Below, in pieces: positions 10,499 through 37,900 of a stretch of DNA of 64,000 bases. Numbering within the stretch: the first letter of the stretch is position 1; every line of letters begins with the position of its first letter. Origin of the DNA: a virus. The stretch lies in IMG/VR virus record IMGVR_UViG_3300023179_000040, positions 1 through 64,000 of that record; one strand, written 5' to 3'. A model generated the notes under the pieces. That model did not search any database and was not told the origin of the DNA. It saw nothing but the letters and a program-made list of their open reading frames with translations. A program made the position numbers and the translations under genes.

Positions 10499-10978
10499 AT
10501 GAAATCTCCAGACTTTACTATTATAGTAGATACCAGAGAGCAGCATCCATGGTCTTTTGATAATTACGCTACAGCCAAGCGTAAATTAGATACCGGAGAC
10601 TATAGCATAGAAGGTTTAGAGCATCTATTAGGCATAGAAAGAAAGAAAAGCGTTAGTGAATTTGCCAATAATATTGTGGAAGAAAGATTTACTGATGTAG
10701 TTGATAGATTAAGCAAGTTAAAATATTCTTATATCCTATTTGAGTTTAGTTTAAATGATGTTTTAATTTATCCTGTAGGATCAAATATTCCTAAGAAGTG
10801 GTGGAACAATATTAAAATAAGTCCATCATTTATTATTAAACATATTTTAGAATTGGAAATGATACATAATATTAAAATTATTTTTTGTGGATCGGCCGCT
10901 AATGCAGAGAAGATGGCGGAACACATATTAAAAAAGGTTAACTATATTGAAAGAGTTAAAAACCAAACAACTATTTGA
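10499..10978 (+). CDS. ERCC4 (XPF/Mus81-type) domain nuclease
   Basis: IIVDTREQ...LDTGDYS...IERK motif (GDxnERK). Confidence 0.85.
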   Translation: MKSPDFTIIVDTREQHPWSFDNYATAKRKLDTGDYSIEGLEHLLGIERKKSVSEFANNIVEERFTDVVDRLSKLKYSYILFEFSLNDVLIYPVGSNIPKKWWNNIKISPSFIIKHILELEMIHNIKIIFCGSAANAEKMAEHILKKVNYIERVKNQTTI

Positions 10979-12980
10979 TGATGCATGGTTAGGACTTGGT
11001 GACTTATCCAACCTAGTCATACCTTCTAATCCTATGATTCACAGAAGTGAACAGGACATAGAGAAACCAGATCTGCATCTTATGAAACTTATCAGAAACC
11101 CTAAATACATTGGGGCCACATGTAAATTGCTTTTTAATATAGAACTACATCCTATACAAATGGCAATTTTACAAGAATTTTGGTTAAGAGCTTTTCCTAT
11201 GTATATTGCTAGTCGTGGATGGGGTAAAAGCTTTTTATTAGCTTTATATTGCATATTAAGAATGACATTTTATCCAGGTACTAAGATTGTTGTAGTAGGA
11301 GCAGCATTTCGTCAAAGTAAGATTATCTTTGAATATATGGAAACTATTTGGCGTAATAGTCCTATTTTAAGAAGTATATTTTCAGGTAATGATGATGGTC
11401 CACGACGCGATGTTGATCGCTGTACTATAAGGTTGGGAGATAGTTGGACAGTAGCTATCCCCATGGGAGATGGTAGTAAAATCCGAGGTCTTAGAGCACA
11501 TATCATTATTGCTGACGAATTTGCATCTATATCTCCAGATATTTACGAAACGGTAGTATCAGGGTTCGCTGCGGTAAGTGCTAGTCCTATTCAGAATGTT
11601 AAGGATCAAGCTAAAAAATTAGCTATGAAAGAGGCAGGATTATGGAATGATGAGTTAGAAGTATTAAATACCAAAATGGGTAATCAAGCTATTATTTCGG
11701 GTACTGCGGATTATGACTTTAAACATTTTGCTAGTTATTGGAAAAGATACAAGGCTATTATAGAAAGTCGTGGAGACAAGAATAAATTAGAAGATATTTT
11801 TAAAGGTGAAATTCCTAGTAATTTTAATTGGAGAGACTATAGTATTATTCGTATACCATATGAGCTTATACCAAAAGGTTTCATGGATGATAAGCAAGTT
11901 AGTAGGGCTAAAGCCACAATACATAGTGGAATATATAATATGGAATATGCCGCTTGTTTCGTAACAGATAGCGAAGGATTCTTCAGAAGAAGTTTGATAG
12001 AAGCATGCGTTACATCTGATTCTAAACCTATTTCAGTTGGTAACAAAAAGATAGTATTTGATGCTATGGTTAATGGGGATCCAAAATCTCAATATATATA
12101 TGGTATCGATCCAGCCTCAGAACAGGATAATTTTAGTATCACTATTTTAGAAGTTCATCCTGATCATAGTAGAATAGTTTATTGCTGGACTACTAATAGA
12201 AGTAATTTTAAAGAAAGATTAAAAACAGGACTAATAAAAGATCATGATTTTTATGGATTCTGTTGTCGCAAGATTAGAAATTTAATGAAAATTTTTCCAT
12301 GTGCTCGCATTGGTCTTGATGCTCAGGGAGGTGGTGTTGCGATAGAAGAAGCATTACATGATCCTTCCAAACTAGAAGAAGGAGAACACTTAATATGGCC
12401 TATTATAGATCCAGATAAAAATAAAGATACAGATAGTCAATCAGGATTACATATTATTGAATTGGTGCAGTTTGCGAAAGCAGACTGGACTGCTCAGGCT
12501 AATCACGGACTAAGAAAAGATTTAGAGGATAAAGTATTATTATTTCCTAGATTTGATAACTTAACATTAGGATTAGCTCTAGAAAGAGAAGGTAAAGATA
12601 TCCTTGAAAGTGATCTTAATCCTATTTATGATAGTTTAAGTGAATGTATTTTGGAGATTGAAGAGCTTAAAAATGAGCTAACTACTATAGTCATGACTCA
12701 AACAAGCACAGGACCAAATGCTAGAGATAGATGGGATACTCCTGAGGTTAAATTGGTCAATAGGAAAAAGGGTAGACTAAGAAAAGATAGATACAGTTCT
12801 TTATTGATTGCTAATATGATAGCTAGACAAATGATGAGAAGTTTAAAGCCTATGGGATATGAAATAGTAGGCGGTAAAGCCTCAGAAATGACCGGCCATT
12901 CAGGAAATCTTTATAAAGGACCAGAATGGTTCACTTCAGAAGCAAATAACGATATTTATACGGGAATTTATCGAGACTAA
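10947..12980 (+). CDS. terL: Terminase large subunit
   Basis: Walker A SRGWGKS, RG...Walker B IIIADEFA, RNase-H-like YGIDPA and KDRYSS. Directly upstream of portal. Confidence 0.9.
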   Translation: MKELKTKQLFDDAWLGLGDLSNLVIPSNPMIHRSEQDIEKPDLHLMKLIRNPKYIGATCKLLFNIELHPIQMAILQEFWLRAFPMYIASRGWGKSFLLALYCILRMTFYPGTKIVVVGAAFRQSKIIFEYMETIWRNSPILRSIFSGNDDGPRRDVDRCTIRLGDSWTVAIPMGDGSKIRGLRAHIIIADEFASISPDIYETVVSGFAAVSASPIQNVKDQAKKLAMKEAGLWNDELEVLNTKMGNQAIISGTADYDFKHFASYWKRYKAIIESRGDKNKLEDIFKGEIPSNFNWRDYSIIRIPYELIPKGFMDDKQVSRAKATIHSGIYNMEYAACFVTDSEGFFRRSLIEACVTSDSKPISVGNKKIVFDAMVNGDPKSQYIYGIDPASEQDNFSITILEVHPDHSRIVYCWTTNRSNFKERLKTGLIKDHDFYGFCCRKIRNLMKIFPCARIGLDAQGGGVAIEEALHDPSKLEEGEHLIWPIIDPDKNKDTDSQSGLHIIELVQFAKADWTAQANHGLRKDLEDKVLLFPRFDNLTLGLALEREGKDILESDLNPIYDSLSECILEIEELKNELTTIVMTQTSTGPNARDRWDTPEVKLVNRKKGRLRKDRYSSLLIANMIARQMMRSLKPMGYEIVGGKASEMTGHSGNLYKGPEWFTSEANNDIYTGIYRD

Positions 12981-13034: not shown

Positions 13035-15239
13035 ATGGCTAAAAAGAAACCCAAAAACGAAGTAATAAAAGACGCTAATATAATTCCAGAAGATGCTTAC
13101 GTAACATGGGGAGATGATTTAGCCAGTAAACAGGATGCCCTAAAAAGATCATCGGCTTCTTTAGATGAGTTCACGCTCATAAATAAAGCTGAAGGCATGA
13201 GAAGGTATGGTCTAGATTACTCAAATCTTGATGGAATCACAGGTAGTCGTCCGGGTTTTACTAGAACAGACTATGACTATTTTAGACCGGATGAAGCAGT
13301 ACCGAAAAAGGTTAAAGCCATTTTACAACGAGCTGAGGACATTTATCAAAGGGTTGGTCTAGTTAAAAACGTTATAGATTTGATGGGTGATTTTGCTACT
13401 CAAGGAATCAGACTATCACACAAGAATAAAAGAATAGAAAGATTTTACAGAAGATGGTTTAAAAAAATACAGGGTAAAGATAGAAGCGAAAGATTTTTAA
13501 ATAATCTTTATAAATCTGGTAATGTAGTTATCGATAGACGCACAGCTAAAATTAGTTTGAAGGTTACAGAAAAATTATATCAAAGCTTAGGAACCGCAGA
13601 CTATCAAATAGCAGACATTGACAATGTACAGATAGAAAAAAGAGAAATACCATGGAAATATACTTTTATAGATCCAGTATTTGTGGATGTAGTTGCCGGA
13701 CCATTAGCTTCTTTTGTAGACAACAAAACATATGAATTACAACTTCCAGGAAATCTTAGAAGCCAAATAAATGCTCCTAAAACAGAAGCAGAGAAACAAA
13801 TTTTGGCTGGTCTTCCTAAAGAAATTATAGAAGCAGCTAAAACACAACACGGATTTCCTCTGGATCCAAATAAAACTTTAGTATTCCATTATAAAAAAGA
13901 TGATTGGCAAGCTTGGGCTTTCCCAATGATCTATGCTATTATGGATGATCTAACAGTTGTAGAAAAATTAAAACTTGCTGATATGGCGGCTTTAGATGGT
14001 GCAGTATCTAATATAAGAATTTTTAAGCTAGGTAATCTAGAACATAGAATTGCTCCCACCAAAGCAGCAACAGCTAAACTAGCACAAATCCTAGGAAATA
14101 ATACTGGTGGCGGCACTATGGATTTAATTTGGGGTCCAGATATTGAACTATTAGAATCTAATACTAATGTTCATCAATTTTTAGGTGAAAATAAATATAT
14201 TCCTCATATGAATGCTGTTTATGCTGGTCTAGGTATTCCACCAACATTAACTGGTACATTCGGAGCTGCCGGAACAACCAATAACTTTATTTCACTAAAA
14301 ACATTAACACAGAGACTACAATATGGTCGAGATGTTCTAGTAAGATTTTGGGAAAATGAAATTGCATTAGTACAAAAAGCTATGGGATTTAAATATCCAG
14401 CTAAAATAGAATTTGATAGAATGGATCTATCCAATGAAGATACTGAAAAAGCATTATTAATTCAACTAGCAGATCGTAATCTAATTAGTGATGAACTATT
14501 ACAAACTAAATTTGGTTTTGATCCTGACATGGAGAAGTCTAGACTCAATAGAGAAACTAGAGAAAGAAAGAGCGATAGAATGACACGTAAGGCCGGTCCA
14601 TGGTTTGATCCTCAGATAGAAAACTCACTTAAGAAAATAGTTCTACAGACAGGTACGGTGACTCCAAGTCAGGTCGGTCTTGATCTTGAAAAAAAGAAAG
14701 CTGGAGAAAAATCGGCACTTGAACTGAAGGTACCAGCAGCTCCTACCATGAAGTTGGCAAACGATTCGCCAGAATCGTTGCCTAAAGCACCAGGACAAGG
14801 AAGACCCAAAACGTCCAAGGATTCTCAGAAACGAAAAACAAAAGTTTTCCAACCCCAAACAGGGGCTACTCTAATGATTTGGGCAAACAAAGCACAAGAT
14901 AAGATAAATGAGATTATAAATCCAGTATTATTAGATTTCTATAATAAAAAAAATTTAAGAAGTTTAAGTTCTATAGAGTTTTCTGAAGCAGAAGAGATTA
15001 GGACAAAAATTTTATTTGGACTTCAACCAATGTCCAAGATAGACGAAGATTCAATAATGGGTTCCTTTGCACAAATAGATAGTCCAGAAAATAAATATAA
15101 AATATATGAATATAAAAACTGGCTTAAATCTATTGAACAGACTTTAAATCAATCACTATCTGTAGAAGAACAAAAGCAAGCAAAAGCTTCTTTTTATAGC
15201 TTGGTGTATTCTCCTGAAGACACAGGAGAAATAGAATGA
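13035..15239 (+). CDS. Portal protein
   Basis: Position after TerL, 734 aa, portal-like helical pattern (VKNVIDLMGDF..., VYAGLGIPPTL...). Confidence 0.75.
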   Translation: MAKKKPKNEVIKDANIIPEDAYVTWGDDLASKQDALKRSSASLDEFTLINKAEGMRRYGLDYSNLDGITGSRPGFTRTDYDYFRPDEAVPKKVKAILQRAEDIYQRVGLVKNVIDLMGDFATQGIRLSHKNKRIERFYRRWFKKIQGKDRSERFLNNLYKSGNVVIDRRTAKISLKVTEKLYQSLGTADYQIADIDNVQIEKREIPWKYTFIDPVFVDVVAGPLASFVDNKTYELQLPGNLRSQINAPKTEAEKQILAGLPKEIIEAAKTQHGFPLDPNKTLVFHYKKDDWQAWAFPMIYAIMDDLTVVEKLKLADMAALDGAVSNIRIFKLGNLEHRIAPTKAATAKLAQILGNNTGGGTMDLIWGPDIELLESNTNVHQFLGENKYIPHMNAVYAGLGIPPTLTGTFGAAGTTNNFISLKTLTQRLQYGRDVLVRFWENEIALVQKAMGFKYPAKIEFDRMDLSNEDTEKALLIQLADRNLISDELLQTKFGFDPDMEKSRLNRETRERKSDRMTRKAGPWFDPQIENSLKKIVLQTGTVTPSQVGLDLEKKKAGEKSALELKVPAAPTMKLANDSPESLPKAPGQGRPKTSKDSQKRKTKVFQPQTGATLMIWANKAQDKINEIINPVLLDFYNKKNLRSLSSIEFSEAEEIRTKILFGLQPMSKIDEDSIMGSFAQIDSPENKYKIYEYKNWLKSIEQTLNQSLSVEEQKQAKASFYSLVYSPEDTGEIE
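15203..15209 (+). promoter_or_regulatory. Putative late promoter motif
   Basis: GGTGTAT, 32 nt upstream of the protease gene. Confidence 0.5.
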
Positions 15240-17299: not shown

Positions 17300-18307
17300 A
17301 TGTCAGCTAAAACTCAGAAATTTCAACCAACGCCTGAACTCACAGACCTTCTTGTTCGTTCAGGCTCGCCTAACCGTGAAGTTGCTCTAGCAGCCAATGC
17401 AGAATTTGCTAAGGCTTTAGAGCTTCCATTGAGAAAAGGTCTTCTTAGTGGTGATATTCTTGATGGTATCTTTGAGCCAATCAAACTTGCTCAAGGTGCT
17501 ACTCCAGAGTTTCCATTAGATTTCCTTGCTCCTGGAACAGAAAAAGACTTTGTGGCATATACCGTACCAAATCACGGATATATTCCAGAACGTCACGTAG
17601 AGAGCGATTACGTCATGGTGCCAGTATACGACATTGGCTCCAGTATCGACTATCTACTTAAGTATGCCCGCGATGCTCGCTGGGATGTTGTTGGTCGTGC
17701 TATGGAAGTGCTAGAAGGCTCATTCGTCAAGAAGATGAACGATGACGGCTGGCACACACTATTAGCCGCTGGCGTTGATCGTAATATCGTTGTATATGAT
17801 AGCGATGCTGCTAGCAACCAGTTTACCAAGCGTCTAGTAAGTCTCATGAAGACAGTAATGCGCAGAAATGCAGGCGGTAACTCAGCCAGCAATAATCGTG
17901 GTATCCTAACCGATCTTTATGTCTCACCAGAAAGCATGGAAGACATTCGCAATTGGGGTATCGATCAAGTTGATGAGATTACTCGTAGAGAAATCTATAC
18001 AGCTGCTGATGGTACACTCAACAGAGTTTTCGGTGTTAATCTCCACGATGTGGACGAGCTAGGTGTTGGTCAAGAATATCAACTATTCTATACCAATACT
18101 CTCGGTGGTACTATGGGAAGTAAGAGTGAGATTGTTGTTGGTCTTGATCAACGCAAGACTGATAGCTTTATCATGCCGGTTCGTGAAGAAGTTCAGATCT
18201 TCGAAGACGAAACACTACATCGTCAGAAGAGAGCTGGTTTCTACGGCTGGGCCGAACTCGGCTTCGCAGTACTCGATAACCGTAGAGTTCTCCTCGGCGC
18301 TCTCTAA
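17300..18307 (+). CDS. Major capsid protein (HK97-like)
   Basis: 335 aa, strong RBS, biased codon use, followed by a terminator, position after protease and decoration genes. Confidence 0.8.
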   Translation: MSAKTQKFQPTPELTDLLVRSGSPNREVALAANAEFAKALELPLRKGLLSGDILDGIFEPIKLAQGATPEFPLDFLAPGTEKDFVAYTVPNHGYIPERHVESDYVMVPVYDIGSSIDYLLKYARDARWDVVGRAMEVLEGSFVKKMNDDGWHTLLAAGVDRNIVVYDSDAASNQFTKRLVSLMKTVMRRNAGGNSASNNRGILTDLYVSPESMEDIRNWGIDQVDEITRREIYTAADGTLNRVFGVNLHDVDELGVGQEYQLFYTNTLGGTMGSKSEIVVGLDQRKTDSFIMPVREEVQIFEDETLHRQKRAGFYGWAELGFAVLDNRRVLLGAL

Positions 18308-25997: not shown

Positions 25998-28900
25998 ATG
26001 GCATCAGGCTTTAATCTCACAGCCCAGTTAAATCTTAGAGGACCGTCAAATATTGGCGTGATCGTAGCCGATATTCGTAGACAGATAGGATCTATTAATG
26101 CTGCTGTTAATCTCAGATTAGATCCGAATGCTATAAGAAATACAACTCAACTTAATGCTTCTTTACAAGGTCTTAATAGAACCCTTAATCAAGTTACATC
26201 ATCAGCTTCTAATGCAGCTGCCGCTATTGGTAGATTATCTAATGCCTTGGGTAGAGTTAATGCTGGTGGAGTAGCTCAAAATTTAGGACGAGTAGCTGCA
26301 TCTACTAATACTATTGGTCAGTCAATGAGAGATGTTAGCACCCGCATAGTTGCTGCATCATCAGAAATGCAAGAGTTCGGTAAGCAATCAGGATTGGCCG
26401 TAAGACGCTTTGCAGCATTTAGTACTGTTACTGGCGTTATATATGGTTTAACTAATGCTATTAATCAAGGAGTTAAAGCTTATATAGATTATGATAGACA
26501 ATTAGTTAAATTACAACAAGTAACTGGACAATCTGCGGCCGGTTTAAAATCTCTTGAAGATACTATCACTCAATTAGCTGTTGGTTTAGGTGTTGGGTCT
26601 GCTGAATTAACACAAATTTCTAGCACATTAGCACAAGCTGGTTTGAGTGCCAAAGATACTGAAAGAGCACTTAAGGCATTAGCATTAAGTTCCTTAGCAC
26701 CATCGTTCGATAGCATGAACGAAACCGTAGAAGGCGCTATTGCGTTGATGAGACAGTTTGGTATCGGAGCCAATCAGCTAGAAAAAGCTCTTGGTTCTGT
26801 TAACTCTGTTGCTGCTAAGTTTGCTGTTGAAGCTAGCGACTTAATTACAGCTATTCAACGTACCGGTGGTGTGTTCGCCACAGCAAGTAGAGGAGTAAGC
26901 GAAGGAACAGATGCTTTAAATGAGTTCTTAGCAGTCTTTACTAGTGTTAGAGCTACTACTCGTGAAAGCGCAGAGACTATTGCTACTGGCTTGAGAACTA
27001 TTTTTACTAGAATTCAAAGAGAAGATACAATAAATGCTCTTAAATCATACGGAGTAAATCTTACAGATTTAGATGGTAAATTCGTCGGAGCATATAATGC
27101 TGTAGAATTATTAAGTAAAGGATTATCTAAACTAGATCCAAGAGATCTTAAGTTCTCTCGTATTGTTGAAGAGCTTGGCGGTTTTAGACAAATCGGTAAA
27201 GTTATTCCATTAATTCAGCAGTTCGCCACTGCTCAAGAAGCTCTTAAGGTTGCACAATCAGGTCAGGGATCATTAGCTGCCGATGCTGCTAAGGCTCAAG
27301 AGTCATTAGCTATTCAAACAGCTAAAGTTAAAGAAGAATTTTTATCGCTCTTTAGAGAAATTGGTAAAAGTGATAGTTTTCAGACCTTGGTGAAAGGAGC
27401 ATTATCTGTTACTAGTGCTTTAATTAAAACCGCAGATAGTGTCAAAGGAGTATTGCCAATATTAGGAGTTATGTTGGCATTTAAAGGAGCATCCGCTATT
27501 ACTCAATTTGGTTCTGGATTTGTTCAAGGTATTCGCGGTTCTGGTGGAGCCAGAGGATTAGGTCAGAGACTAGGTGGTGGTTCTGGTATGTCTAACGGAG
27601 GTCCGGTAAGATACTATGCTTCTGGTGGTCTTGTTCCTGGCTCCGGAGACACAGACTCAGTTTCTGCTAGACTAACTCCCGGCGAATTCGTTATAAATAA
27701 GAGAGCAGTTAAAGCTATAGGTACCAGTAATCTGAATAGAATTAATAGATATGCTGTGGGAGGACCAGTACCAATCAGACAATTGGCTAGTTCTACCAAG
27801 GGTGGATCAACAATTAAAAAATATAGAGATACTAATTCTGATATTATACAAGACATAGATCTTGTCTCTTCTGCTATAGATCGTAAAAATTTACCATTAA
27901 CAGATGCTGATAAAAAATATCTTTTTAGAGCAACGTTAGCGGATAAGGGATCGGGTAAAAGATTTAAGGGTAGTATTGCCTATTTAAATAAGAATGTTTG
28001 GGGCGATGCTTATGAAGAAATCATAGCTAAAAAGCTAGGCTCTGGTTGGCAAAAAACATCATCTATAAAAGAAATGGGTCCGTCTTATCCATTAGATCTA
28101 TATAATTCTAGTACTGGTGAATTAGCAGAAGTTAAATTTACAGATAAGCCAGTTAGTATAGCACATATTCTTAGTAAAAAATTAAGACAAAAACTTATTT
28201 CTTCTGGTAGAACTAAAAAAACAGGATGGGGATTTACTCAATCTGTTGGCGAAAATGTTAATCTTGGCAGGGCTACTGTTTATGAGCCTAGCGAAAATGA
28301 AAAAAGAGAGTTTGTGAACGCATATAAAACAGGAGCTTTGGATGCTAAGGCTTCTACAGGAGGTATCATTCGTAAGTTTGCGGATGCTGGACTAGTCAGC
28401 GCCACCGGAGGTAAACCAGTCTCGGCATCACAAATTATTAGGCTCCTAGGAGCAGAAGGAGCTGCGAAGGCTGGTAATATCAGCGCTAATGAAGTTAACA
28501 GAATCTTGCGTATCCGCAAGCCCGATGCTATAGAAGCAATGATTCAAAATAATATCCTAAAAGAATATCAAAAAACAATAAATAGAAGAGAGGGCGCTCA
28601 AAAAGCAAGAGGAACTAGATTAACATCTCAAGGCTTATTGTTTGGTGTCGCTGGTATGTTTGGATCCGCATTTCCGCCTGTTATAAAGACTATAGAATCT
28701 AATTTATTAAAATCTCCAGTTAGTGTTAAAATTATGAGCGGTATTATGAGTGAGAGTACCGCTCAATCTGTAGATGAAATGTTTGCTAGTTCTCTTAACA
28801 AGACAGCAAATAAAGCAGCTAAAAAAATTATGGTTGCTGATATTCTTGGTAAGGTTGGTTTGGGTAGAGAATTAAATTTAGATTTTGATAGAACACTAGC

Positions 28901-31900
28901 TTTTGGGGCAGATAATATTCTGTCCGATCCTAAAAAGCCAAAATTTGTTGAATTTTCAGATAGAAATAAAGTATCAGGAGCACTTAAAACAGCCAAATTA
29001 AGTTTACTAGGTAGAGAACTAGCCAGTTTAGTATCTAGTAAACCAGAATTATTAAATAATCTAAGACTTATTACCGCCAGACCAGCATCAACATTAGATC
29101 TAATTCAGTCTTGGTTGTCTAGCAAAGGATTACCAATACCACTAAGTCAGTTTAAGGGTCTTGGTGGTCCAAGCGTTTCTGGTTCTCAGATAGCCAAACT
29201 CAAAGCTGCTTTATTAAGTCCAGGGTCATTATTTGTTGATGATGATGTTAGAAATATTAAAGCCGCTCGTAGAAGATCCAAAGAAGGCATAGAATCATAT
29301 CGCTATAGCAACCGCAGAAACACAACTAATATAAATGGAGATGCAACCGCACAAGGTATTCTTTTTGAAAAAGTAATTGAAAAGCTTGGTGGGCCTTTAG
29401 CCCTTAAAGGTGGCGGATTAGATTTTCCAGAAGGACTAAAAGGTGCAGCTAAGTATTTTGGTATTCCGGCAAATATACCAACAGATGCAAAGCGTACCAT
29501 TAATGGACCATCAACAGTAGAAGATAATATTATTACCTATCTAAGAACCAAGGGCTACGCTACTGGAGGAGAGGCAAACAAGAATATTCTAGCCATGCTC
29601 ACTCCGGGCGAACTAGTATTATCTCCGGATCTCGCATCGTCTATTGGAAGATCTAAATTAGATAAACTAAATCATGCAGAAAAGTTTATAAAGAAAGCTA
29701 GTGGTGGAACTATTAGTATGGTTCCAGGTTCTGGAGACGGAGACTCTTACGGTCCTGTACCACTAGAGGTTGGTAGTTATGTTATTAGAAAGAAAGCGGC
29801 TCAAGCTCTAGGATTCAATACCGGAGGATATGTTCAAGGTTTTGCTGTTGGAGGACCAACACTATCAGCAAGACCAGCAAATCCAACAGTAGATAATGTG
29901 AGAATAGATACAAATGTAGTATCCCTGCTACAAAATGTGGGCAAAGCCTTAACTGATCTTGGATTATCGTCTAATAGTGCCGCATTATTACTTAAGAAAA
30001 ATGCAGATATAAACTATAGAGAAGCTCAAAGAGCGCTAGAAGCAGACGTTAGACGTATGAGAGTTGCTGGAGCATCAGCTCAAGAAATTTTAGATGTTGA
30101 AGCTAGATTGGCTAATGTTAGAAATTCAGCAGCTAGTAATATTGCCGCAAGACAAACATTATCAAATACATCAGGACAACAATTACAAGAAATACAGTTT
30201 AGGGCACAAAGAGAACGAGAAGATATGATTAATCGCAGAAGATCTGTTGCTAGAGCAAGAGGTCGAAGCGAAGATGAGATTAATGCTGCTATCGCAGATC
30301 CTAATTATCAACGATTTGTTAATAATAGAAGTTTTGAAACTGCAACGACCGCAGTTACAGGAGTTAGTGCTCGTACACTAAGATCACAAAATATTAGTGG
30401 GTCAGATATTGAACAAGTAGTTCGTCAGTCTATGATGGATCGCAGAACATTGGCTCAAATGGATAGGCAATACGTATCTCAAAGAAGACAGGAAATTTTT
30501 AATCAATTAAGAGCAGAAGCTGGAGTTACAGCTACTAAATCTCAAATTAGAGTATTAGCTTCTCAGGCTTTAACTATGGCCCAACAAGAAGTTAAAGAGA
30601 GAAGACAAATACTAAACCAACAGGCCGCTGCTGCTGGAGTAATAGGTCCTGGTAGAGGTGGAATATTAGGTACAGGTATTGGTATAGGTCCATGGTCAAA
30701 TGATCCTCGACAAGGAGCTATTTATAGAACATTATCTCCGATGATGGGAGGAATTACTCCACGTAATATTATGGGCGGTATCAGAAATTTTGGTTCATCA
30801 TTAGGTACTGGAAATGCTGGATTTTTCTTAAGTATGGGGATAGGCGCGGTTGCTGGACAATCTGAAAATATTTCATCATTGATGGGTGGCGATAAAAAAG
30901 CTCAAAGAGGACGAGCCGCAGCTATAGAAGGAGGCTTAAGCACCTTTGCTTCTGGACTATCATTAGCTAGTGGTGCCGCAATGATTCCTGTTGTTGGACC
31001 ATTTGTTGCCGCTGCAACTGTTGCTGGTAGTGCTTTGTTGGCGTTTAAGGACGCCACGAATGCTTCTGCAAAAGCTCTTAAAGAATATGAACAAGAGCAA
31101 AGAACCAAAAATATAGATGATATTAATGATAAAATTAATAGAGCATCTGAAACATTTCAAAAAACAGGTAATTCTAACGAGTTAATTAAACTTTCACAGC
31201 AAGCTAATGGGGCTATTAATGAAGATCTTCTTATTAAAACTAGAAATGCTGCTGAGGAAAAGGCTAAATCTCAGAGTACCTTTAGTTGGTTGATGGGAGA
31301 AAATAAACCAATTCTATCTAGTGAAGACTATAAATCTCTAGGTAAGGATGCTGCTAAACAAGCAGAGCAGTCAGCTCAGTCTGCTCGTATGATTATAGAA
31401 TCTAGAATACAAGGAGGAGCAGATCTTAATCAATACGGATTAACAGAAGAATTTGCTAAATTATCAAATATTATTGCTCAGGCCGATCCCACCTTTACAA
31501 CTTTTATAGCATCAACAAAGAATATGACTGATGCTGAAAGAGCACAAGCCATATCGGTAAAATTAGCTGAGAGAAGATTATTATTAATGAGAGATGCAGG
31601 ATTAGTAGCTACAAATAGTACTGTTATGGCATCCAAGGCGATGGAAGAAGCGAATAAAGCAGGTAGAAAACTAGCTCAAACTTTTGAAAGCATGAACAGG
31701 TCATTTTCTCAAGCTTTGGGCAGAACACAGTATGAGGCCGGTGTTAATCTGAATAATAGAGAATCTAGATCAGAAGACTTGACTGGCTCTTCTAGAATTA
31801 TGATATCATCGTCTAGAGATCTCAATATTGCTGAAAATCCATTAGCATATGATTCTGCTACTAGGGCTCAAACATATGGCCGAGTAGCTAGAGAAATTGT

Positions 31901-34900
31901 TAGACCAGATATGGCTGGATTAGATCTCGCAGAAAGAAATCGAAGAGCTAATGAAGCTAATCTAATAAGTCAAACATTAAATTTTGATACTGTTGGTGTT
32001 CGTAATCGTACTGTAGGCGCTGTTAATGCTATAAATAATGGGGGAACTACTTTTGAACAAGCTTCAGCAGCATCAAGGACCAAACTAGAACAAGAATTAG
32101 CCAATGCACCAAGCTCTATTAGAGATCAGATACTTAAAGAATTTGATGATATTATTAATAATATAGCTAAGGGAGATAGTAAAGATAAATCTAATCAAGA
32201 TAAAATTAAAATATTAGGCGAAACTCTACAGAATGATTTAGGTAAAAGTGCTATAGAGGCCAAGGACAACCTGAACCAGATGGCTCTTGAATTTTTGAAA
32301 TTTAAGGACAGTACTCTAAAACAATTTGTTGATTCTCTTAATAAGGTTGTTCAAGAACAATTAAAAGCCGCTGAAGCTATTAGACAGGCTAGATCTATAG
32401 TCATTGAATCACGGGTGGCCTTGAGAGAACTTATTAGCGGTGGATCGATAGGACTAGGAGAAAGAGCACAAATTATTAATAATAATGTAGGATCTCTAAC
32501 AGGAGGCATAACTGATCCTACTCGCATAAGACAAAATATTCAGAATCTTAGCGCAAGAAAATCAGAACTAAATAATAAATTAAATGATCCTTCTTTATCT
32601 AAGGAAGAAAGAGATAAAGCCATAGTAGAATTAGAAGGCTTAACACTATCTCTTAATAAAAATAGAACAGCATTAGATGAGTTAGCTAATAGTACAGAAT
32701 TAGCTAGTGCTGCTATGTCTCAGCTACAAAATTTACAGAAGATGCAAGCTGATAGACTACAGAATATTGATCAAATACTCACATCAACACCGCAAGAACT
32801 TAGAAAATTTAATGAGTCACTCATTAGAGTTCAACAAAGAGCAATGGGTATCGATCCTGGGCCATCACGGGAAGCTCGCAAAGCATATAACAGAACACTA
32901 AGACAAACCGGTGGAAATGTTCAAGCTGCTATGATGGCCGGTCAGGCTCAGATGGCAGAGGATAGAGGTACTGATTTAAGAAATATGGAACAGTATCGTA
33001 GTACTTGGATTTTGAATCAAATGAATGAGGCTCGTGCTCAGGGCATAGAATTAAGTCAAGAAGAAGCTAATAGAAGATTCAATGCTAATGCCGCTAATGT
33101 TAGAGGCCAAATGGCTAATGAGTCTGGTGCTGCTAATATGTATGGCCCAGGAATCAATGAAGGCATAATGGCTAGTGTTGATCCTATGAGAGACCCAGCT
33201 TTTGCCGCCACTGCTAGAGTGGCCATGGCAGCAAGTGATAATCAAGCCAGAGCCAAAGAACAGCAAGCTATTTTATTAACAACAAATGCAACAGAGGAAT
33301 TTGGTAATGCATTAAAATTACTAACAGATCAAATGCTGTTAATTAGTCAAAGATTCTCACTAATGCAACAACAGCAAGGAGCAGATTTAGGATTAGCTCC
33401 GCCTCCTGGACAAATGAGACCACCGGTCATAGTACCCCCACTGTTTCCTGCACAACGAAATCAGCCACAAAGAAAGGCTTTGGGTGGTTTGATTTATGCT
33501 GCTAATGGTCAATTTGTAGACTTTAAGCCTATGGGGACTGATACCATACCAGCAATGTTAACTCCAGGAGAATTTGTTGTTAATAGAACTGCTACCGAAA
33601 AACACTTGCCTCTATTAACCGCTATTAATGGAGGTAACGAAGTTAGGGTTGATGGTATGAGTAGCGGAGGATTAGTTTATTTGGCTAGAGGTGGTAGGCC
33701 AGGAATGAATATGATGACCAATGGAGGCAATAGGGTCGATGGGCGTGTTCCCAAGAGATTGGCCGTGCGTAGAGATTATGCTACTTTTTCTAGATTAGAT
33801 GCAGATAGTAGCGGTTATTTAACATCAACAGAGATTGATGACGAGATCTTATCAAGATTAGATGGTAATAATGACGGTAGACTCAGTACTGTAGAATTTT
33901 TTGGAGCATTACCAAATACTAGAGATAGAAGATTTTTAGGTAGAGTAGACTGGCGTAAACCTACAATTATTACTAGAGCACTAGAAGCACAAGATATTAG
34001 TTATAGAGTATTTTCTGAAAATAGATATGCTAAGTTTGCAGATAAATACAGAGACCCTAGCACCATAGAACAGGGATTGATGGTCGATCCTAGAAGACCA
34101 AAAGATCCTGATGCTGTTATTCCAAAGATCGATATACCATCATTAGTGCCTAATGATCCTAGATCCCGTATGACAATGGACATGCAGAGATCTGTAAATG
34201 GTAATCTTATTCCTATTCCCAAAACACTTAAAGAAAAAGACCCTAAATCTTTACGCAATTCATTTTATAGATTAGATGTTAATGAAGATGGCGTATTGTC
34301 TGGTACAGAATTAACCTCGTATCGTGATTTAGATACTGACTTAAATCAGCAAATTACAGAAGATGAGTGGCTAGGTGTGGGTTTTGATCCTTATGATTCA
34401 TTACAAAGGGAAAGATTTAATATTACTAATCCTTTTGGTAAAGGAATGGATGCTCGTAGAAGAGCTTTAGAGTCCGGAATGGCAGCATACGAAAGAAGCG
34501 TTGCGACCGGCGAGCCAATACGCGATAGAAAAGGAAATATTGTTTTTGACGGTACTGCTGAAAGCTTAAAGAATAAAAGAGAAGAGTTAGCAACTATAAG
34601 AGCAGCTAGAGGAGGAAAGTCTCAAACACAATTAATTCGTGAACAAAAATATAATGATCGCTTAGTTAATCAAAGACTAGGATCTTCTGGATATGCTGTT
34701 GGCAAGGCTCAAAAGCAGATAGATACAGAAAGAGAAATGTTTGAGGAAGAAAGAAAAAAAATCAGCAATGCCAATCCATTAATGACGGAAGATGAGGTGA
34801 TACAAGCTACAACGGATTCTCTTAACAAAGGCGGATATACTATTGGAGCGGATGTTAATTGGTGGAAAAATGAAAGAGGAATCACTGCTACCGCCGGTCA

Positions 34901-37900
34901 ATATGACGAAACTAGAACCTTAGAAGCTATAAAAAATAGCGATGCTCTAGCTACTAATAGCGATCCAACCGGAGCAAAGGCAAGAGCATCAATAGATGCC
35001 TATGCCGCATCACAAGGAGCCAGAGCACAAGCAGATAGAGTAAGTAGAGGTATGGGTGATGAACCTATTAGCCCTGATGCTGCTGTAGTTGGTACGCAAG
35101 GACCGGTATCGTCTTTAAACAGAGCGATAGATAATGCTGAAGTTGGTAGAGCAGTAGATACTAGAGTTAGAAGAGAAAAACAAGATCAATTAGCAGCTGA
35201 TATTCAAGCTGATGTTGCCAGATCCGCAGCTATGGACAAGAGAGATAAAGAGCTTGGTATATACACCGGAGATATCAATAGAGATATCTATGTTTCTGGT
35301 ATGGGCGATGTATCTTATCAGCCTGGAATGGGATCAAAAATATCTATCGAAGAACAAAAACAGAGAAGACGTGAAAAGGTTATTAAAGACAGATTAACAT
35401 TCACAGATAAAACTGGTAAATATTCACAATCTGGTACTATAGATAGTATTGATGCTAAGACCGGCACTGTGCGTATTGCTAAAATTGATCCAAACACCGG
35501 GGCACCAGTTACGAAAAAAGATAAAGATGGGATAGAAAATCAAGTATATACAACTATACCAATAGATCAATTAGATACAAAATCTCAAGCTAAAATCAAT
35601 AAAGCTCTAGAAAAAGATAGAGCACAGCAAGCAGCAGTGGCTAATGCTACGCTAGATAAAGCCGTTCAAGGCATTTCGATATCTGCTGAGGTGGATTTAT
35701 CATTACCATCTGAATCAACTAAAGCCAAAGCAGATGCCCTAGCTAAAGAAACTATGGAGAGAGCTAATGCTGATCAGGCTAGGTTTGATCAAAGCATTTT
35801 ACCAACATCTAAGCCATCTATCGTTATTGATCCTATTACTCGTCAGCCTAAAACTATTGATGGACAGAATATAGATGTTAAAGCTATAAGGCAAAGATTA
35901 GAACAAGATCGTCAAGATTTACAAGCCCAAATAGAAGATTGGGTTAAGAATGGACAATTTGGCGAAGGTGTGGCTCGTACACAAGATATGAATCTTACTC
36001 AAGCTAAGATTGATAGGTCACTACAAGAATTAGCAGATTTAGAAAATGCAAAATACGAATTTGATACCGCAAGAGAGGAAAAGAATCTTGCTACACAAAA
36101 AAGATATGAAGAGCTAAAGAAAAAGAGTGAAACTGGTAGAGGTCTAGCGTCAGTTAAGGAAGCAGATGAATTTGCTAGACTATCTATTGAGAGAGGAGTT
36201 GCTCCGGGAGAAATTCCTGGAGGAAGAACTGTTGTTGTTGAAAGAGCCATGAGAAGCGAAGCTTTTGCGACATCAGATAAAACTGATGCTTTTGGTCAAC
36301 CTGTTGCTGTTGGAAATATGGAAAAACAATCAACAGAGCAGTATACTAAAGATCTTGTTGAGGAGAAGAGAACTTCACAATATAGTAAATTAACATCGGA
36401 AATTTCTAATAATGCCAGTCAGTCTGTAGAAAATTTAACAGGTTCTCGTTATTTAGGTAATACCGCCGGTTTTGTAACCACACTAGGTTTAGGTATTGTA
36501 TCACCAGAAAATGTTGTAACGCAGGTTGCTACTGGAGGGTTAGGACTTATCCCAGCATTAGGTGTTGATGTGGCTAGTGCCGGAGGAGGTGCTCTAGGTG
36601 CTTATGGTGCAGGAGATTCTCAAGGAGTAATAGAAGCTGCGTTTCAAGGAGCCACTACATTAGGTATGACGGGGGCTTTTAGAGCTTTAGGCGCAGCACT
36701 ACCGTATATTCCTGCTGTTAAGATGCCTAATTTAAGTTTCCCTTATAAGTCATTTGGAAATGGCGTACAATCTTTATTAGATACCGCAGATGAGTCTCTT
36801 ATTAGGGGCATATATGGTGTTGATCCTAAAGTATATCGTAGAGCAGAAAATATAGCTGGTATCAGGGCGGATATACAGGCCGCAGCTGAAGAAGAAGCCT
36901 TCGTCAATTCTGTCACTGATTTTATGACTGGTAAAAATAGTCCAGTTGTTAGAGCGATAAAAGAGGCAGATGCAGACTTTAGATCTGCTCCAGACAGAGC
37001 AGCACAACAAAGAAAAGCATTAGATATAAAAAAACAAGAAGCAACAGCACGACTAGAGCAACAAAAAATAGATGCCCAAAAAGCTGAACAAGAATTTGTA
37101 GATAGTCAAATTACGGATATTCGTGATCGGGTTATAAGAGATGTAGAAGCTGCTAAACAAAATGGAGCCACAGCATCCGGCATAAAAGCAATTGAGTATA
37201 GAGGTAAGGTTGAATTAGAGGAAAAAGGATTATTGCCTAGAGCTGAAGAAAGACTTAATCTTGCTCAAGAAACAAGACGCAAAGCAGAAGCTGATCAAGC
37301 TATTAAAGAAATGCAAGACTCATTTAATACTACTAGCGCACCAATACCATCGAAACCATCACCTAAAAAGCCAAAGAAACTTGCTACTGGAGGTATTGTT
37401 TATGCTGCTAATGGAGCATTAATCAATGCCCAACAAAAGGGTTCAGACACAGTACCAGCCATGCTTACTCCGGGAGAATTTGTCGTTAACAGACAAGCAA
37501 CTCAACAACATTTACCAGTTCTACAAGCTATTAATAAAGGATACTATAGCAGAGGCGGAATGGTACAATATTTAGCTGATGGCGGTATTGTTGCTCCTAA
37601 GTACTATATGTTTGGTGGATTAAGTAGCGGTATGGGCTTCTTAGCTTCATCTTTCAACAAGGGTAAGGACGGAGCATTAAGTGACGTCGATCCTGCTATA
37701 ATAGCAGAATTCGGCAGGGCTGTACAGTCCCTTAAAGATACTTTTGGTTCACTAGAAAACTTTAAAGATGTTGGCGAGAATATTAAACAGGCCATGAGCA
37801 CAATGAGTCAAAATGTAGCAATGTTTGGTGAGTCTATCAACTCCATACCTCAAGAAGTTGTACACAACATGAGCGCAACAGTTATGCAGCACGTTATGGG

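Follow-up and report, generated by a model that had tools for sequence, protein, structure and literature searches.

Tape measure proteins (TMPs) are usually viewed as rulers and channel formers, equipped at most with cell-wall hydrolases, and the virion RNA polymerase of Thermus phage P23-45 is, to our knowledge, the one published cytoplasm-type enzyme fused to a TMP. The present analysis concerns P0001, a giant TMP encoded in the first 64,000 nucleotides (nt) of the linear 106,612-bp IMG/VR record IMGVR_UViG_3300023179_000040 (~71% complete), hereafter the window (G+C ~33-38%), and a putative phosphatase domain of the haloacid dehalogenase (HAD) superfamily that lies within it. In P23-45, gp96 is a TMP of 5,002 amino acids (aa) fused to the virion RNA polymerase and proposed to act at the entry pore, ahead of the expression of phage genes (PMC10770324). 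P0001 resembles gp96 in being a giant TMP with what would be a cytoplasm-acting enzyme, but the enzyme of gp96 is an N-terminal RNA polymerase, and the gp96 paper describes neither spacer-bounded cassettes nor a HAD domain; the likeness drawn here is one of architecture. The T5 TMP, pb2, is proteolytically processed and has a cleaved enzymatic (peptidase) domain (PMC10038345). Muralytic TMPs such as pb2 likewise string enzyme domains together in one large delivered protein, as do the polyvalent proteins encoded by phages and by conjugative elements (PMC5512222), but there the enzymes are peptidoglycan hydrolases or DNA-conflict domains. A survey of polyvalent proteins mentions neither tape measures nor phosphatases (PMC5512222), and a search of the available literature found no paper linking TMPs with HAD domains, in agreement with a preliminary description of this sequence, which had not recognized such a domain as a normal TMP component.

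Three described HAD phosphatases have the same type of motif II as the domain in P0001. In T4 Pnkp (PDB 5uj0, 1ltq; PF25109), Asp165 is the nucleophile and Asp167 the acid/base, Ser211 and Lys258 touch the phosphate, and Asp278 binds Mg2+ (PMC3592404). T5 Dmp is a pre-early deoxynucleoside-5'-monophosphatase that works in the first minutes of infection, next to a host-DNA-degrading function (bioRxiv 10.64898/2026.04.02.716235). The third is AphA of E. coli (PF03767, HAD IIIB). The (S/T)-x-R triplet is found in T4 Pnkp (VVVSGRE), AphA (FFVTGRS), T5 Dmp (ICTARL) and the window domain (LITARP).

As the preliminary description had claimed, all four HAD motifs occur in order in the plus-strand frame of P0001 (Table 1); the composite four-motif pattern matches once in P0001 and in 0 of 2,000 shuffled sequences. 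When 1.84 billion representatives were scanned by HMMER for matches to aa 925-1115, 87 proteins were identified (24 at E <= 1e-30; 26-81% identity), nearly all of 2,000-7,900 aa and almost all giant TMPs, with two short homologues among the matches (P0078, 162 aa; P0035, 420 aa). The homologues are metagenomic without exception, on contigs of up to 230 kb; tblastn of the domain against 50,697 phage records gave nothing significant, and a scan for prophage copies in 185,579 species genomes yielded none. In all 45 near-length homologues, Pfam identifies only PF10145 (and EF-hands in a few), and the source annotation is either hypothetical protein or TP901-family tape measure protein. Among 87 rows aligned with MAFFT (the window domain and 86 homologous domains), motif I is conserved as D962 (85/87), D964 (85/87) and T966 (84/87), motif II as T/S1026, A1027 and R1028 (87/87 each), motif III as K1069 (86/87), and motif IV as D1081 (86 D and 1 E), D1082 (87/87) and N1086 (72 N and 14 T, hence N/T in 86/87), along with G1054 (87/87). 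Such near-invariance of the motif residues at identities down to ~27% shows that the predicted catalytic set is under purifying selection.

The predicted structure agrees with the motifs. The AlphaFold2 (AF2) model of aa 945-1110, built from a 12-sequence alignment of IMG/VR loci, is Rossmannoid, with strands alternating with helices (predicted local distance difference test, pLDDT, 91.3; predicted template modelling score, pTM, 0.87), and its leading Foldseek matches in the PDB are exclusively HAD enzymes, at probability 1.0. By VIA-align, the top match is the T4 Pnkp 3'-phosphatase (5uj0_B, Z 11.5, root-mean-square deviation 3.1, 126 aligned residues), followed by AphA (2b82, Z 10.7), Pnkp1 (4xru_D, Z 10.3), class C acid phosphatases (Z ~9.5) and generic HAD enzymes (Z ~9). 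In BFVD, uncultured viruses supply the top two matches, both of them large uncharacterised proteins, below which come phage PNKP-phosphatase, acid-phosphatase and nucleotidase proteins. Thus, aa 945-1107 of P0001 is confirmed as a true HAD-fold domain in which the catalytic set is complete. The preliminary description had placed it correctly, but its borders (28860-29285) clipped the N-terminal helix and the last strand (SYRY). Nor is the domain cap-less or minimally capped as then supposed, because motifs I and II are 64 residues apart and a helical insert of four short helices follows strand 1 between them in the model; the corresponding spacing is 64 residues in T5 Dmp, 68 in AphA and 46 in T4 Pnkp.

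P0001 is a TMP by core homology and by its position in the tail module, downstream of the terminase, portal and major head protein genes, as the preliminary description had it: PF10145 matches aa 191-382 at 3.7e-21 (76.4 bits versus a cut-off of 33.2), and TMP PHROGs match aa 50-508 at up to 5.7e-27. Outside aa 50-508, Pfam and PHROGs give sub-threshold EF-hand matches and nothing else.

Comparison of related loci indicates that the HAD domain is not a constant part of this TMP family. Related TMP cores (57-84% identity) were found in 35 IMG/VR loci, of which 27 could be evaluated, the others being incomplete or running past the end of the examined stretch. The HAD domain is present in 21 of the 27, at variable distance from the core, and missing in six with complete TMP ORFs of 2,329-3,247 aa. 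These six retain the core, the spacers and the C-terminus, and differ by BLASTP between the spacers; thus, the HAD domain is an optional in-frame cassette of the TMP. The spacer (xAxGG ... D[TS]xxAxLTPGEFV[VI]N ... GG) is present in four copies in P0001, two of which bracket the cargo block and two of which lie further downstream (~33490-33710 and ~37380-37620); it is the part that P0001 has in common with HAD-less relatives.

Two further conserved elements flank the HAD domain. Just upstream, within a conserved linker, the glycine-rich and hydrophobic element GLLFGVAGMFGSAF (aa 876-889, 28623-28664) is strongly conserved among 30 representatives; its interpretation as a decayed P-loop was rejected because one related locus (L008) holds both the GLLFGVAGMFGSAF element and a true Walker A motif. 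Directly downstream, a companion module of ~80 aa with invariant residues D-F, D-x-K-x-T and G adjoins the HAD domain in 82 of 86 representatives (median gap 6 aa), and is found without it in loci L033, L036, L053, L062 and L065. The motifs and an alpha-beta-beta-alpha-beta-alpha topology would fit a PD-(D/E)xK nuclease, as had been proposed for this module, but with an AF2 pLDDT of 60 and a best structural match of Z 3.3 that identification is not established.

About two dozen relatives with the HAD domain have two extra modules that are absent from P0001, ~570 aa upstream of that domain: a P-loop module (YGVAGSGK(T/S)) and a HIGH-nucleotidyltransferase-like (NTase-like) module (GxxPxTxGH and ISGTxxR) with repeated sub-threshold matches to CTP_transf_like (PF01467), HIGH_NTase1_ass (PF16581) and MJ0951 (PDB 3gmi). 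In locus L040, the pair lies downstream of the HAD domain instead. The HAD-less locus L062 has a different small P-loop cassette (10654-12150, GPAGSGKTT, between FAGGG and FASGG) with a sub-threshold match to AAA_33 (E 0.0076), followed by a small DFxG..DxTRT module. These associations point to nucleotide or nucleic-acid chemistry.

With a slightly better than even chance of being right, aa 945-1107 is read here as a HAD (DxDxT) aspartyl-phosphatase that is competent for catalysis and forms an optional in-frame cassette within a giant TMP. The fold, the motifs, their conservation, the TMP context and the cassette behaviour rest on observation, and the activity, delivery and substrate are predicted. 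Because the catalytic residues are all intact in the HAD domain of a TMP, the phage probably brings a finished phosphatase with it when it infects its host. By analogy with the superfamily, D962 would attack a phosphomonoester to form an aspartyl-phosphate, with D964 as general acid/base, the phosphate held by T1026, R1028 and K1069, and Mg2+ held by D1081/D1082 together with N1086. The TMP would exit the tail first and form the entry conduit, so that about three copies of the enzyme per virion would reach the host ahead of phage gene expression. Enzymes borne by a TMP have precedents in P23-45 gp96 and T5 pb2. The most likely function is that of a Mg-dependent phosphomonoesterase that would enter the host at infection, with nucleotides or nucleic-acid ends as its targets.

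The substrate is most likely a nucleoside phosphate ester, since the three enzymes sharing motif II act on such esters: either a mononucleotide (compare T5 Dmp and AphA) or the 3'-phosphate at a nucleic-acid end (compare T4 Pnkp). The insert of Dmp or AphA size and the non-conserved charge of the domain lean towards mononucleotides, and T5 Dmp illustrates that a phage can profit from such an activity in the first minutes of infection. With so few enzyme copies in each virion, however, rare targets would be favoured, for instance DNA or RNA ends close to the entry pore. AphA has a T-x-R motif II and a helical insert of similar size, and the AphA family is the sole known family with a profile alignment colinear over all four motifs, a weak link (hhalign with the 12-sequence profile, E 3.4e-4, probability 38%); Atlas feature neighbours of the HAD domain also include phage IIIB-like clusters, and the window domain differs from AphA in having no signal peptide context. 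T5 Dmp has comparable motifs (WDLDGT, ICTAR and IDD), the same T-A-R triplet and an identical motif I-II spacing, but it is made from injected DNA, whereas the window domain is predicted to be virion-borne, and hhalign pairs the two at a probability of only 1-7%; T5 Dmp itself, as a control, has no match in the Pfam copy used. The preliminary description had also suggested the removal of nucleotide signals. HAD chemistry cleaves phosphomonoesters and is unsuited to the phosphodiesters of cyclic-nucleotide signals, which speaks against that suggestion in their case.

Several observations weigh against a delivered nucleotide-directed phosphatase. Searches of the window HAD domain against Pfam, PHROGs, NCBIfam and PDB sequences gave nothing at threshold: there are no Pfam or NCBIfam matches at E <= 1 (other family members have sub-threshold matches to PF12710 at 0.015 and to TIGR01509/TIGR01681 at ~0.02), and neither phmmer nor a family-profile hmmsearch against PDB sequences found anything significant. 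Assignment to a subfamily is suggestive only, because the top structural scores are nearly tied: T4 Pnkp exceeds AphA by only about one Z unit, and both are within ~1-2 units of generic HAD enzymes. The hhalign probabilities are low and unstable, falling for AphA to 3.9% when the 12-sequence profile is replaced by the 87-sequence profile, and reaching 4-6% for T4 Pnkp. The isoelectric point (pI) of the domain is 10.1 here versus a family median of 5.8, and the family is bimodal in pI, so a conserved basic surface was rejected as a sign of nucleic-acid binding throughout the family. Three copies of a folded domain of 17 kDa would not easily be accommodated in the lumen of the tail tube, and few enzyme copies per cell would be slow relative to bulk nucleotide pools.

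The preliminary description had compared the domain with the T4 3'-phosphatase and proposed end healing. On this alternative, which is considered unlikely, the domain would be a T4-Pnkp-type 3'-phosphatase (or 2',3'-cyclic phosphodiesterase) mending RNA or DNA ends that host defence nucleases have cut, or trimming the ends of the entering genome. T4 Pnkp, also a phage enzyme, shares with the window domain the HAD fold, DxDxT, the S/T-x-R motif II, the motif III lysine and the DD of motif IV; it and Pnkp1 rank first and third in the structural comparison, PNKP-phosphatase proteins are numerous among the BFVD neighbours, the low copy number would suit rare substrates such as ends, and the domain of the window is strongly basic. 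However, the window domain has no match to PF25109 (T4 PseT, the control, scores 2.8e-59) and hhalign against PseT aligns one motif and no more. The helical insert is 18 residues longer than that of T4 Pnkp, the basic charge is not conserved across the family, and T4 Pnkp is a free cytoplasmic enzyme with a fused 5'-kinase, whereas the window domain has none and is embedded in a virion TMP. End healing specifically is unsupported because its usual partners are missing from P0001, which has no Walker A motif, and from the 106.6-kb record (71% complete), which has no match to an AAA_33 (PNK-type) kinase or an RNA ligase.

AphA and the class C acid phosphatases reside in the periplasm or the outer membrane. 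A phosphatase of the envelope or periplasm that aids penetration, comparable to muralytic TMP domains and directed at periplasmic nucleotides or at phosphates on lipopolysaccharide, lipids or cell-wall polymers, is accordingly conceivable, but improbable. The class B/C acid phosphatases (AphA, and class C enzymes of the e(P4) type) score highly in the structural comparison (Z 9.5-10.7, with 142-149 residues aligned). Most known TMP enzyme domains, such as the T5 pb2 peptidase, have the envelope as their target, and the sub-threshold EF-hand-like Ca2+ loops of the TMP would suit a Ca2+-rich compartment. However, the window domain has no match to PF03767 (the AphA control scores 2.6e-29), its motif IV is DDxxxN (DDDVRN) versus GDSDxD in AphA, and the partner modules of its relatives point to the cytoplasm, because P-loop and NTase-like modules would need ATP or NTP.

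It is still less probable that the cassette has no role in infection, being a structural or packing module, or active only in the producing cell before assembly, or cleaved off and left unpackaged. Folded domains would be sterically awkward in the tail tube, the T5 TMP is proteolytically processed, and the cassette is dispensable in six related complete TMPs; but the near-invariance of exactly the catalytic residues in 87 divergent sequences argues for catalysis, and fusion to the first-ejected protein would most simply mean delivery, as proposed for the P23-45 TMP-RNA polymerase. Least probable of all is a phosphoprotein phosphatase that would, as the phage enters, reset the phosphorylation used by the host in signalling or defence, like the HAD domain of the Legionella effector Lem4, which is among the Foldseek matches (6cgk, 6cdw, 6cgj) and is echoed by DUF2608/HAD clusters among the Atlas feature neighbours (score 0.86, a lead only), but which matches no better than other HAD enzymes (TMq 0.51-0.56), while no protein-binding module was identified and the (S/T)-x-R motif II is held in common with nucleotide-directed enzymes.

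Beyond the preferred reading of a delivered HAD phosphatase, the giant TMPs of widespread uncultured aquatic phages might constitute a protein-delivery platform, a possibility that is put forward tentatively. Swappable enzyme cassettes between GG/LTPGEFV spacers (the HAD phosphatase and nuclease-like modules here, and the P-loop and HIGH-nucleotidyltransferase-like modules in relatives) would be ejected with the DNA, and within seconds of infection, before phage genes are transcribed, the HAD cassette would reset the nucleotide pools of the host or defence substrates derived from nucleotides. A conserved phosphatase with its catalytic residues intact, shared by dozens of giant TMPs, would widen the idea raised by P23-45 to metabolic or nucleic-acid enzymes delivered as protein, and would define a HAD family missed by current profile libraries. 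It also raises the structural question of how a foldable 17-kDa domain is stored in, and expelled from, the tail tube. The HAD domain is short, soluble-looking and easy to assay, which makes the prediction directly testable.

Table 1. Features of the TMP P0001 and its surroundings in the window, and of the module pair found in related loci.
Feature	Coordinates	Strand	Remarks
HAD-fold phosphatase domain (predicted activity), aa 945-1107	28830..29318	+	AF2, Foldseek, VIA-align, homologues
Motif I, D962-F-D964-R-T966 in LDFDRTL	28881..28895	+	Predicted nucleophile and general acid/base; D962 = nt 28881-28883; equivalent of T4 Pnkp D165/D167
Motif II, T1026-A-R1028 in LITARP	29073..29081	+	T1026 starts at nt 29073
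Motif III, K1069 in AKLK	29202..29204	+	Equivalent of T4 Pnkp K258
Motif IV, D1081-D1082-D-V-R-N1086 in FVDDDVRN	29238..29255	+	Predicted Mg2+ ligands; paired by hhalign with T4 D277/D278
TMP ORF (open reading frame) P0001, 4,021 aa	25998..38063	+	Carries the HAD cassette; single ORF
Conserved TMP core, aa 50-508	26145..27521	+	PF10145 and TMP PHROGs; common to 35 IMG/VR loci, 57-84% identity
Spacer module 1 (YYASGG...LTPGEFVIN...YAVGG)	27606..27782	+	Upstream border of cargo block; recurs in HAD-less relatives (BLASTP)
Conserved linker before HAD domain, aa 780-944	28335..28829	+	Kept in 30 representatives
Companion module of ~80 aa, aa 1113-1194 (DF...G...F...DxKxT..G)	29334..29579	+	Directly after HAD domain
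Spacer module 2 (YATGG...LTPGELV...FAVGG)	29556..29867	+	Downstream border of cargo block
Terminase	10947-12980	+	
Portal	13035-15239	+	
Major head protein	17300-18307	+	
P-loop and NTase-like module pair	L032:13192-15078; L008:1054-3000; L013:667-3000; L035:12622-14034; L040:13359-15302		

Other features of P0001 and its homologues were observed. A module at aa 595-790 (27780-28367) has PD-(D/E)xK-like motifs (YPLDL ... ELAEVKF) and is kept in only 6 of 87 representatives, so that as a cassette it is rarer than the HAD domain. The EF-hand matches of P0001 (aa 2596-2790, 33783-34367) score 22-23 bits, just short of the Pfam cut-offs of 25-26. P0001 has only three hydrophobic segments resembling transmembrane segments (aa 482-503, 27441-27506; aa 1652-1684, 30951-31049; aa 3510-3533, 36525-36596), and the HAD cargo block sits between the first and the second. 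One TMP homologue (P0028, 7,122 aa) contains two HAD-like stretches, at aa 2286-2397 and aa 3477-3634.

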